Shown piece after piece: positions 42,676-44,334 of a stretch of 64,000 nucleotides of DNA. Position numbers and translations under genes: made by a program. Each line of letters opens with the position of its first letter. The stretch's first letter is position 1. The notes under the pieces were generated by a model, which was given only the letters and a program-made list of their open reading frames with translations, searched no databases and had not been told where the DNA came from. Origin of the DNA: an uncultured Bacilli bacterium (GTDB lineage Bacteria > Bacillota_I > Bacilli_A > RF39 > UBA660); the NCBI GenBank assembly GCA_934122275.1, contig CAKOWI010000002.1, positions 64,762-128,761 on the forward strand. Reading direction: 5' to 3'.

Positions 42676-44334
42676 ATGCATAATTATGAAAAAAATATTG
42701 TTAAGTATTTTAAGGAAAGAGATTATCTGTGCTTTTTTGATAGTGAAGAAGATGTGCTAAAAGTATTAAATAAAGATTTGACTGATTATGATTTAATGAC
42801 TTTATTTAGATATTACATAGACAATTTAGAAGATGATGAATTAAAAAGAAAAATACATTTATATTTAAATATAATTTGTAATAATCCTAGCTATAGTTAT
42901 GATAATATAACAAATAAAATTAGTGAAATTTTAAAAACATATGATAATGATATTAATTATAGAATAATGGATATGGTTTTTAATGACGAAATATTTATTA
43001 AGAAAGTAAAAAATAAGAAAAATGATGAAGATTTAGGTAAAAAATATTACTACACTGATTCTGTAAAACAGTACATAAGAGAAATCTCTAAATATGAATT
43101 GTTAAGCAAAGAAGAAGAATATGTTCTTGCAGTAAAATGTAAAAACGGAGATAAAAAAGCTAGGGAAAAACTTATAAATTCTAATTTGAAATTAGTAGTA
43201 AACATTGTAAGCAAGAAAAAATATATTCAAGAAGGTGACTTTTTGGATGCAGTGCAAATTGGGAACTTAGGTTTAATTAAAGCAGTTAGTAAATATGATC
43301 CAGAACTTGGACTTAGGTTTTCTACGTATGCAACGTATTGTATTAATACTAATTTATATAATGATATGATATATGATAAAAATTTACTAGAACGTAGTGA
43401 TATTAGTAAATTAAAGTTAATTAATAAAGCTAAAGAAGCCTTATCAAAAGAGTTTCTAAGAAATCCTACTTATGGAGAAATAGCAGATTACACTAAGATT
43501 AAATTAAGCGAGGTTATTCTAATTGTAAATAAATCAAATTATATTTTAAGCTTAGATCAAAAAGTAAAAGAAAATGGTGATGAGGATACTTGTGAATTAG
43601 GAAACTTTCTTAAAGATGATAATGTAAACGTTGAGGATACCGTTTTAAATGATATGGTATATGATGATTTATTATCATTCATAAATATTATACTTGGTGA
43701 AAGAGCAAAAGAAATATTACTTTTAAAATTAGGACTTGGAGGGAGATATCAGCACCGTATTACTGAAATATCTAAGATGTATAATGTAAGTAAACAGTGC
43801 ATATCTAGCACTTATTTAAAGAGTCTTGAGAAAATCAAAGAATTATATCCGATGATGGATAAAATTATCCAGTTTGCTAATGAAAAGAGTCTAGAAAAAT
43901 ATGATTTAAGAAGTAATTTAAGATTTAAAAATGGTGAAAATATGTCGGCATGGTTTCAATTAAATAAAAATAAATTGATTAGTAAATGTAAGTGTATTTC
44001 TAAAGAATATAGTAGGTATAAACAAGGTATGGAAGTATTAAAGTTAAGGCTAATATATTATGAATTATTGAAGATAGAAGAGTTTGAAAAACTAGGAATC
44101 TCTTGTGATGAATTTTTAATTATAATGTTAAATAGAAAAAATAAATCATTAATGTATGAAGATATTTCTGAGTTGTTAAATATGAATATAGAAAAGATAA
44201 AAAATATTTTAAGCAATGATAATGAAGATATGATATTTAAGATAAAAAAGTGTATTAGTGGTGATATTAAATATACAGAACTTGATGAAAAACTAAAAGA
44301 AAAGATAATGAGTAATTCTATTAGTAGCAACTAA
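42676..44334 (+). CDS. Sigma-70-family protein with long N- and C-terminal extensions
   Basis: Region 2 '[49 protein letters not shown]', region 3-like '[19 protein letters not shown]', region 4 '[36 protein letters not shown]'. Flanked by about 130 aa N-terminal and 165 aa C-terminal sequence of unknown type. Confidence 0.7.
   Translation: [552 protein letters not shown]

Follow-up and report, generated by a model that had tools for sequence, protein, structure and literature searches.

Few bacterial proteins have been studied as thoroughly as sigma factors. Those of groups 1 and 2 are 330-620 aa long and always have an N-terminal region, and those of group 3 (SigB/F/G, the sporulation sigmas and FliA) are without region 1.2. 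To our knowledge, the extensions built into known sigma factors are nearly all either N-terminal, as in RpoD, or C-terminal and regulatory, as in the ECF sigmas. Here we describe a sigma factor gene on the plus strand (42676-44334) of a 64,000-nt stretch of contig CAKOWI010000002.1 from an uncultured Bacilli bacterium; the whole stretch is referred to as the window and the product of the gene as the query sigma. The reading that we favor, with moderate confidence, is that the query sigma is an accessory, lineage-specific paralog of RpoD/SigA with altered promoter specificity, and that it belongs to a group of proteins from bacteria of the order RF39, termed slot sigmas here, whose genes lie in a variable interval downstream of dnaJ.

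Among described sigma factors, the SigA/RpoD proteins of the Bacillota (B. subtilis SigA, PDB 7ckq_F, and the RpoD of a clade member, locus L027) are the best match in sequence and fold, and the query sigma shares with them the 1.2-2-3-4 order of regions, its region 4 being weak, and the segment that binds core RNA polymerase. The query sigma differs from these proteins in that its core is only ~35% identical to theirs, no region 1.1 is detectable and the residues that read the -10, extended -10 and -35 elements are replaced. Moreover, its gene is not beside dnaG, is dispensable across sister species and encodes ~160 additional C-terminal residues. Group 2 sigmas (RpoS, the cyanobacterial SigB-E and the actinobacterial HrdA-D/SigB) are likewise non-essential RpoD paralogs that keep region 1.2, but their DNA-reading residues are near-canonical and they lack a C-terminal extension. 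Three canonical-looking slot sigmas from other genomes (L013, L028 and L041) are nearer to group 2 than the query sigma is.

The sigma core and its promoter-reading residues

Searches with Pfam models place region 1.2 (Sigma70_r1_2, PF00140) at aa 128-160 with 39.9 bits, region 2 (PF04542) at aa 166-227 with 40.6 bits and region 3 (PF04539) at aa 245-318 with 50.2 bits, each above its cut-off (22, 24 and 25.3 bits, respectively; residues are numbered from the ATG at 42676). A degenerate region 4 follows, to which a locally built region-4 hidden Markov model (HMM) gives ~25 bits in register. The initial annotation had read regions 2, 3 and 4 in a core that fills only the middle ~260 aa, and the HMM searches that it proposed bear this out, delimiting the core to aa 128-389 with region 4 as its weak part. 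A sequence search of the PDB and a Foldseek search both returned SigA and RpoS chains that cover the core alone, and the AlphaFold2 (AF2) model has pLDDT values of 80-93 in regions 1.2 and 2, 72-87 in region 3 and 62-80 in region 4.

In NCBIfam, RpoD/SigA- and RpoS-type models rank first, every one of them far below its equivalog cut-off. The primary-sigma models NF006666 and TIGR02393 score 137.8 and 115.7 against cut-offs of 572 and 354, and the RpoS model TIGR02394, the second-best match, reaches 141.5 of 378.7. Group 3 models also stay below their cut-offs (TIGR02980, 90.2 vs 234; SigF, 93.9 vs 321), and the query sigma has region 1.2. The nearest relatives outside the family are 33-38% identical over the core only, and BLASTP against the canonical clade RpoD of L027 aligns just aa 117-388. 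Since region 1.2 is present and the best scores are against RpoD- and RpoS-type models, the peers of the query sigma are the group 1 and 2 sigmas, and by its sequence it is an RpoD-like paralog of that branch rather than a small alternative sigma. The initial annotation had compared it with alternative sigmas of 180-260 aa, which is the wrong class for the same reasons. The large extensions that it described at both ends are there (~127 aa in front of the core and 162 aa behind it), but the N-terminal length is normal for the RpoD branch, and only the C-terminal ~160 aa are unusual in position.

The segment of region 2 that binds the beta-prime coiled coil is retained in the query sigma. At the places that read the -10, extended -10 and -35 elements, the query sigma has YCINTNLYN, ERSDI and SKQCISS, and the canonical motifs WWIRQ, RIPVH and RERIRQ (VTRERIRQ) are missing, as seen in alignments to the slot sigmas and the clade RpoD. 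In sigma-70/SigA, these positions make up the -10 wedge and contact -12, the extended -10 element and the -35 element. Eight slot sigmas retain the canonical ...IRIPVH and VTRERIRQIE motifs; those of L061, L011 and L026 have also diverged at the promoter-reading places (region 2.4), yet they are intact. Canonical promoters do occur in the window. A perfect TTGACA-17-TATAAT (35378-35406) lies 30 nt upstream of hrcA, and the ATPase gene that follows the query gene is preceded by an extended -10 element (Table 1). Since such promoters are present and the residues for reading them are missing from the query sigma, another, canonical sigma presumably serves them, and the query sigma, if active, would read a promoter type other than the canonical one.

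The gene itself is real, intact and under selection, and comes from an uncultured human-gut bacterium of the order RF39. The window (23-30% GC, with nearly all genes on the plus strand) translates with the standard bacterial code, in which TGA serves as a stop codon, and the GC content of the query gene resembles that of its surroundings. The open reading frame (ORF) as listed (42670-44334) has 554 aa counted from a TTG, an unlikely start. The likely product is the 552-aa form from the ATG at 42676, because a GGGAGA Shine-Dalgarno sequence sits 6 nt before that ATG, and gene callers also picked this start on independent contigs carrying the gene. The coordinates in the initial annotation already matched the 552-aa form, and only its length of 554 aa was the TTG-start count; the peptides that it quoted are present in the translation. 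An identical protein is encoded on 7 contigs, the exact gene is present in Hadza samples, and the query belongs to a 20-member protein cluster without a name, so that it is not a known, named sigma factor. The 15 listed members of the cluster come from NCBI, ENA and Logan assemblies. Their identity to the query is 90-100%, and they fall into two sub-lineages (~98% and ~90% identical). Thirteen of them have 552 aa, one has 554 aa (the TTG start) and one has 455 aa. None has an internal indel relative to the query, and the reading frame is free of frameshifts and stops down to 90% identity. A merger of two genes by sequencing error, which the initial annotation had raised as a caveat, is thereby ruled out, the ORF being identical across independent assemblies and its length kept to 90% identity. 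Among the 15 members, the N-region has 18.9 variable sites per 100 aa, the core 12.9 and the C-region 17.9. Compared with a conspecific contig (L001), the gene of the window differs by 12 nonsynonymous and 10 synonymous changes; its pN/pS of 0.25 is similar to that of dnaJ and the ATPase gene and significantly below neutrality (P=0.002), and the gene is under purifying selection.

The slot family and the regions flanking the core

A genome scan with the DnaJ of the window yielded 80 loci (L-numbers; P-numbers denote proteins from the sequence searches). In ~36 of them DnaJ is 68-81% identical to that of the window, and the same pepF-dnaJ ... ATPase order is found. The related loci carry names such as Clostridium sp. 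CAG:594, Ca. Aphodocola excrementigallinarum and uncultured Bacilli, Mollicutes or Tenericutes from gut samples. Ca. Aphodocola corresponds to the GTDB genus CAG-594 of the order RF39 (PMC8035907), and the members of RF39 and related groups evolve fast and are uncultured (PMC10868615). The stretch from dnaJ to the ATPase gene, hereafter the slot, is 80-230 bp long and empty in at least 12 related species. In 11 related genomes it holds a long sigma of 522-991 aa (L008, 550; L011, 522; L013, 833; L019, 547; L026, 567; L028, 806; L031, 991; L036, 615; L041, 756; L042, 742; L061, 523 aa), and in L015 a further sigma is cut off by the contig end. The slots of L022, L023 and L034 hold unrelated ORFs, one of which (L023:4959-5699) is weakly kinase-like, and additional genes stand beside the sigma gene in L042 (an HD-domain and AAA protein, 11179-12516) and L031 (a B3_4-domain protein, 14553-15005). 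The suggestion in the initial annotation of an accessory block after dnaJ thus held up, the slot being variable or empty across related RF39 genomes, and the interval acts as a hot spot for accessory genes in general.

Slot sigmas are 29-35% identical to the query core, while the DnaJ proteins are ~78% identical; likewise, the query core is ~35% identical to clade RpoD at a DnaJ identity of 75-81%. One clade member, L027 (DnaJ 74%), has the order dnaJ-proS-dnaG-rpoD-trmK, with a canonical 362-aa RpoD that includes regions 1.1 to 4. Many species have nothing in the slot and this clade member has a canonical dnaG-rpoD, so the slot sigma is accessory and dispensable at the level of the clade, which has a normal housekeeping sigma. 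The query sigma lies between dnaJ and the P-type ATPase gene and has all 8 residues that are invariant in the family module described below, which identifies it as a local, short and strongly diverged slot sigma. The family is undescribed: it is defined here and is not a published one, and a literature search on C-terminally extended RpoD-like sigmas, RF39/RFN20 sigmas, phase-variable sigmas and MzaA returned nothing relevant and no description of the architecture.

The members of the family share a conserved module of ~60 aa directly after region 4, termed module 1. When the query is left out of the module 1 HMM, the query sigma still scores 38.8 bits, a value reached by 0 of 2000 shuffled sequences (maximum 10.6). 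The 8 invariant residues are F400, K408, F417, M423, W426, F427, I441 and Y445 in the query, and none of the sites that vary within the species falls on them. Module 1 is shared by all slot sigmas and by the core-less proteins of L007 and L009, was found in 13 ORFs of the loci and has no Pfam match. A G..MS.WF motif and the true HA repeats of L031 had pointed to a helicase-associated (HA, PF03457) domain for module 1, which was ruled out: 0 of 12 module-1 sequences match PF03457 at E<=10, and hhalign against the L031 HA repeats gives a probability of 0.1%. The repeats themselves are a separate matter. Within its C-terminal array, the 991-aa slot sigma of L031 (11298-14273) has two genuine PF03457 repeats (E 7e-29), and we know of no other combination of helicase-associated repeats with a sigma factor.

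Beyond module 1, the part of the query sigma that contains CDEFLIIML (aa 462-534) is a probable additional helix-turn-helix (HTH) resembling region 4, with moderate support. It scores 8.9 bits against an HMM of the slot terminal module (6 of 2000 shuffles do as well) and 9.1 bits against an HMM of the terminal HTH of other long sigmas (1 of 1000 shuffles). By hhalign it matches the slot terminal module with a probability of 68% (E 5e-5) and region 4 with E 2e-3 in the same register. Modeled on its own, the C-terminal extension has a pLDDT of 48.8, and its four-helix pattern is compatible with a region-4-like fold, which is not evidence in itself. The tails of slot sigmas are modular. After module 1, some members have one or two 'FYSMFDG...KW.GDL' modules, some have a 'TIYEYF..YSKEE...LRYG..LE.PV' module, and the longest end in a 'YLKLYELFNMPYF...IDPRDYK.LFLKLNYP.KS..EI' terminal module. 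Profile-profile comparison with region 4 gives probabilities of 93% for the TIYEYF-type module, 81% for the slot terminal module and 97% for the terminal HTH of the long-sigma group, and the tail of L013 also gives Pfam Sigma70_r4/r4_2 matches. The query is the shortest-tailed slot sigma that still has a terminal module, in its case a probable one; its relatives have 2-4 more modules.

The tail also occurs without a sigma. In L007 (Clostridium sp. CAG:594; 8451-9800) and L009 (7149-8495), the slot encodes a 449-aa protein that consists of C-region modules only, with module 1 (76 bits), two middle modules and the terminal sigma-4-like module (94 bits), and no sigma core. This protein is either an intact 5' deletion derivative or a free-standing form of the tail. 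Since these two loci carry the array without the core, the C-terminal array appears to be a separable functional unit.

The N-terminal region of the query sigma is less clearly placed. Slot sigmas share an N-region of ~110-125 aa, which is longer in L026 and L061, and an HMM of 11 such regions gives 5.9 bits on that of the query, which 1 shuffle in 2000 also attains. That of the query lacks the '..YCD.NDIE' ending of the others, and BLASTP against the slot sigma of L061 yields one collinear alignment over aa 17-460 of the query. The homology of the query extensions to those of slot sigmas is thus strong for module 1 and weak for the N-region and the terminal HTH. Region 1.1 was also considered for the N-region and rejected, as PF03979 gives no match and a region 1.1 HMM scores -1.3 bits, no better than on shuffled sequences; hhalign of the slot N-regions with region 1.1 gives a 14-column match with a probability of 0.3%. 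In the AF2 model (50 sequences), both extensions are helical with low confidence, the N-region being mostly below 50 and both extensions below 50-57 in a full-length model with an overall pLDDT of 58.

Neither aa 1-127 nor aa 390-552 has a significant match in Pfam, NCBIfam, PADLOC or PHROGs. A word-indexed search of 5.8 billion proteins with the full query found its own cluster, the remainder being RpoD proteins 33-38% identical over the core, and the extensions alone found just fragments in that set, 85-98% identical to them and belonging to this lineage or a sister of it. A HMMER scan of 1.84 billion representatives gave core matches only, some of them to sigmas of 550-930 aa with alignments that reach the query C-region. 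The view in the initial annotation that the extensions have no recognizable motif therefore holds for curated domains and fails for slot-family profiles, which match module 1 clearly and the terminal part weakly.

Long sigma-70 proteins of 550-930 aa, unannotated and uncharacterized, also exist in other low-GC gut Bacillota (P0022, P0010, P0294, P0319, P0322, P0275 and others). They share with slot sigmas an RpoD-like core followed by sigma-4-like modules ('SIYEYF..LRYG..') and a terminal 'LGYVDGKYFS..' HTH, as well as a long N-region that ends in '..YC.INDIE'. They differ in that their DNA-reading residues are canonical and in that they have no module 1, which was seen only in RF39 slot proteins and in P0222, which is L041. 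Two sets of candidate relatives were rejected: P0087 and P0079 (741 and 659 aa, encoded after dnaG in an organism of 47% GC) are RpoD proteins of the usual kind whose tail is an Ala-Lys-Pro repeat, and the P0090 group (513 aa) has a long N-region and neither a C-terminal extension nor module 1. The latter group (P0090, P0067 and P0089; 511-513 aa, 571 members, on contigs of up to ~1.2 Mb) is an abundant set of sigma-70 proteins from small-genome organisms, with an N-region of ~230 aa of no known type and a diverged region 2.4, and one source labels it 'primary sigma factor'. The searches also returned a 927-aa protein (P0188) that has two complete sigma-70 cores in tandem and a sigma-4-like tail module, and two proteins (P0184, 447 aa, and P0185, 434 aa) that look like internally duplicated or mis-assembled sigmas.

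Mechanism and rival explanations

An obvious question is how a protein with this architecture might work. If the query sigma is an active paralog of RpoD, it would bind core RNA polymerase through the retained segment of region 2 and direct the polymerase to a promoter type different from the canonical -10/-35, which is proposed because almost every residue that reads these hexamers is replaced. The C-terminal array (module 1 and the extra HTH) may supply an additional contact with DNA or a partner and so help to set specificity. The gene would be transcribed together with its upstream neighbor from a SigA-type promoter of its own after the dnaJ terminator, outside the heat-shock operon. Going further, one could imagine slot sigmas as contingency regulators, subject to gain, loss and truncation and, through poly-G tracts in the promoter spacer, to on-off switching in sister species; the extra sigma-4-like modules and module 1 would let a single protein read one more upstream DNA element or dock a partner. 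This is a tentative idea and, in our view, an unlikely one. If it is true, transcription of a variable set of genes (surface- or phage-related) would be rewired in gut RF39 bacteria. The family would then be the first in which a sigma-70 protein has region-4-type domains in tandem, and also an example of phase variation in a sigma factor.

Several observations weigh against an active paralog with altered specificity. The Pfam model of region 4 (PF04545) scores just 16.7 bits at aa 343-389, under its cut-off of 24.1. The assignment of the terminal HTH depends on scores of ~9 bits and hhalign probabilities of 46-68%, AF2 yields no confident fold for either extension, and the grouping of the query with L061 in a neighbor-joining (NJ) tree joins two long branches. 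The test for purifying selection draws on just 22 substitutions. A canonical rpoD of the same genome was not located in the 64-kb window and the 10-kb flanks that were viewed, and the closest RpoD in the protein set is 62-65% identical to clade RpoD. Finally, the loss of all canonical DNA-reading residues and of the middle modules would fit a decaying or repurposed protein equally well.

That last point leads to the main rival, in which the query sigma is a decaying or repurposed relic of a longer slot sigma and is no initiation factor, acting at most as a competitor or regulator that binds polymerase or a partner. Its replaced reading residues, sub-threshold region 4, short tail and very long branches in the NJ tree could all be read in this way, as could the emptied slots of many species and the core-less proteins of L007 and L009. 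A relic would not be expected to retain a pN/pS of 0.25, an open frame free of indels in variants down to 90% identity, the core-binding segment and every invariant residue of module 1, and the slot sigmas with similar divergence in region 2.4 (L061, L011 and L026) have stayed intact, so we regard decay as unlikely. The initial annotation had offered another explanation, namely built-in regulation by the extensions, for example as an anti-sigma-like or sensor module; such a module would keep the sigma inactive in the absence of a signal. ECF41, ECF42 and ECF56 sigmas do have a fused C-terminal domain in the same polypeptide (PMC3426412, PMC7671368, PMC7730460), C-terminal regulatory domains of this kind are established for ECF groups such as ECF41 and ECF42 (PMC3426412, PMC7671368), and a sigma-4-like duplicate could conceivably compete for the docking site of the real region 4. 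The ECF proteins, like the query sigma, have an extra C-terminal domain, but they are two-domain sigma-2/sigma-4 proteins whose SnoaL-like or TPR domains act on sigma activity, whereas the query sigma has regions 1.2 and 3, is not an ECF sigma and has a tail that is HTH-like by profile comparison. Searches with Pfam, NCBIfam, PADLOC and PHROGs revealed no anti-sigma, zinc-binding, transmembrane, SnoaL, TPR or sensor domain; what the tail holds instead is the ~60-aa family module and a weak sigma-4-like HTH. Moreover, the array exists as an independent protein in two related species and so would have a function of its own, which argues against a purely autoinhibitory tail. Built-in regulation of this type is improbable.

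The variable gene content and patchy presence of the slot, together with sister-species poly-G promoters typical of contingency loci, could also point to a mobile element, a prophage or an anti-phage defense system. The best non-housekeeping match in PADLOC and NCBIfam is MzaA, the long sigma-70-family protein of the accessory MZA anti-phage system and the only PADLOC match, and the phage sigma family PHROG 351 scores 150 bits. The likeness to MzaA is limited to the core, however (98.1 bits vs a cut-off of 800 in NCBIfam; 58 bits in PADLOC), and in MzaA the sigma core forms the C-terminal part of a protein of ~700 aa. The neighborhood has no Mza partner genes and consists of dnaJ, an orphan gene, a P-type ATPase gene and a HAD hydrolase gene. 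Phage records match the core and never the extensions, the slot has no integrase, repeat boundary or phage gene, its flanks are conserved housekeeping genes, its insertion point is fixed across species and its GC content resembles that of the DNA around it. An origin in such an element is hence quite doubtful. The explanation to which we give the least credence is that the query sigma is the primary housekeeping sigma made divergent by the fast evolution of RF39. Its best family matches are RpoD/SigA, region 1.2 is present, and there is no other sigma within the 64-kb window. This role is hard to reconcile with the empty slot of at least 12 sister species and the canonical dnaG-rpoD of a clade member, with canonical promoters whose reading residues the protein lacks, and with 35% identity to clade RpoD where DnaJ is 75-81% identical. 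An accessory paralog with altered specificity accounts best for these observations taken together.

The locus reveals an unannotated RpoD-like family in abundant, uncultured RF39 bacteria of the human and animal gut, one that combines a new conserved module with repeated region-4-like modules behind the normal region 4, all in a single hypervariable slot. Slot sigmas evolve several times faster than their neighbors, as core identities of ~35% against DnaJ identities of ~78% between species indicate. Should they be active, they would extend the known modes of promoter recognition by a sigma and indicate that transcription varies at the level of strains in this clade, for which almost no regulation has been described. 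The query sigma is the most degenerate member of the family, and its main value lies in the family and the variable locus to which it leads.

The accessory locus and its expression signals

Several contigs from human-gut metagenomes have the gene order hrcA-grpE-dnaK-pepF-dnaJ-hyp214-sigma-ATPase-HAD-SpaA-metS, and the features around the sigma gene in the window are listed in Table 1. A hairpin and T-run equivalent to the dnaJ terminator is found 3' of dnaJ in nearly all related loci, and this terminator separates the heat-shock operon from the accessory block. The SigA-type promoter-like site behind it is equivalent in place and, by eye, in sequence to the TTGAC(C/T)...TGnTATTAT of L008-L042. 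In relatives, the terminator and promoter directly precede the slot sigma gene; in the window they precede hyp214. Where the slot is empty, the extended -10 element of the ATPase gene comes directly after dnaJ.

Table 1. Features of the query sigma gene and its surroundings (window positions)
Feature	Position	Strand	Description or basis
dnaJ intrinsic terminator	41838..41859	+	Hairpin GATAGC-ATT-GCTATC (41838-41852) overlaps the dnaJ stop; T7 at 41853-41859
SigA-type promoter-like site	41875..41904	+	TTGACA, 18 nt, TATTAT with TG; 11/12; consensus match only
hyp214	41944..42588	+	214-aa orphan ORF upstream of the sigma gene
Weaker promoter-like site	42595..42622	+	TTGAAA, 16 nt, TAATAT with TG; 9/12; candidate internal promoter in the hyp214-sigma spacer
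Shine-Dalgarno sequence	42664..42669	+	GGGAGA, 6 nt before ATG 42676
Sigma gene	42676..44334	+	552 codons and stop; ORF reading, Pfam, independent contigs
N-terminal region, aa 1-127	42676..43056	+	All-helical in the AF2 model; family-specific; weak match to slot N-regions
Sigma core, aa 128-389	43057..43842	+	Regions 1.2, 2, 3 and degenerate 4; Pfam, NCBIfam, alignments, PDB and fold matches
Module 1 (post-region-4), aa 395-450	43858..44025	+	HMM (38.8 bits), slot-sigma alignment
Terminal module, aa 462-534	44059..44277	+	Probable diverged sigma-region-4-like helix-turn-helix; HMMs, hhalign
Sigma intrinsic terminator	44310..44352	+	16-pair stem overlapping the stop codon, then T-run; sequence reading
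ATPase extended -10	44381..44389	+	TGtTATAAT; end of the variable slot

The initial annotation had a hypothetical gene at 41943-42588, which is present and starts one nucleotide later, at an ATG. Its product has no match in Pfam, NCBIfam, PADLOC, PHROGs or the PDB, no relative in the slots of 27 related loci and no homolog outside the species. The cluster of hyp214 consists of 11 near-identical members, with a pN/pS of 0.25 on 6 changes. Because no terminator was found between them, hyp214 is probably co-transcribed with the sigma gene. Matches like the weaker promoter-like site in the spacer are equally frequent in shuffled sequence. Since the equivalent promoter of relatives directly precedes the sigma gene, hyp214 sits between the family promoter and the sigma gene, and from this position its product may be a partner of the query sigma.

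In sister species, the slot sigma promoter has the form TTGAC(C/T)-G8-10-(T)ATATG(A/G)TATTAT with spacers of 14-17 nt (TTGACC-G(8-10)-TATGATATTAT). The promoter regions in question are L028:3890-3957, L036:8660-8729, L041:11205-11281, L042:12605-12670 and L031:11240-11298, and G/C runs also precede the non-sigma slot ORFs of L022 (11197 and 12052). Only 9 runs of at least 7 G or C occur in 636 kb of loci with 28% GC, of which 4 are slot sigma promoters and 2 belong to the L022 slot ORFs. The pattern looks like slipped-strand phase variation of the sigma gene in these species. The window has no G/C run of at least 6, and the spacer of its equivalent promoter (41875-41904) is AT-rich.

Two further observations concern genes elsewhere in the window. 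The oligoendopeptidase F gene pepF (38899-40701), between dnaK and dnaJ, and its counterpart in L001 (6225-8027) have only 41% protein and 54% DNA identity, with the first 20 residues identical, while the dnaK, dnaJ, sigma and ATPase genes of the same pair are ~99% identical. The pepF genes of relatives fall into two classes that are 34-42% or 53-69% identical to that of the window, and the pattern looks like replacement of a whole-gene allele inside the heat-shock operon. Further downstream, a T-box leader (49916-50128) precedes the methionyl-tRNA synthetase gene.

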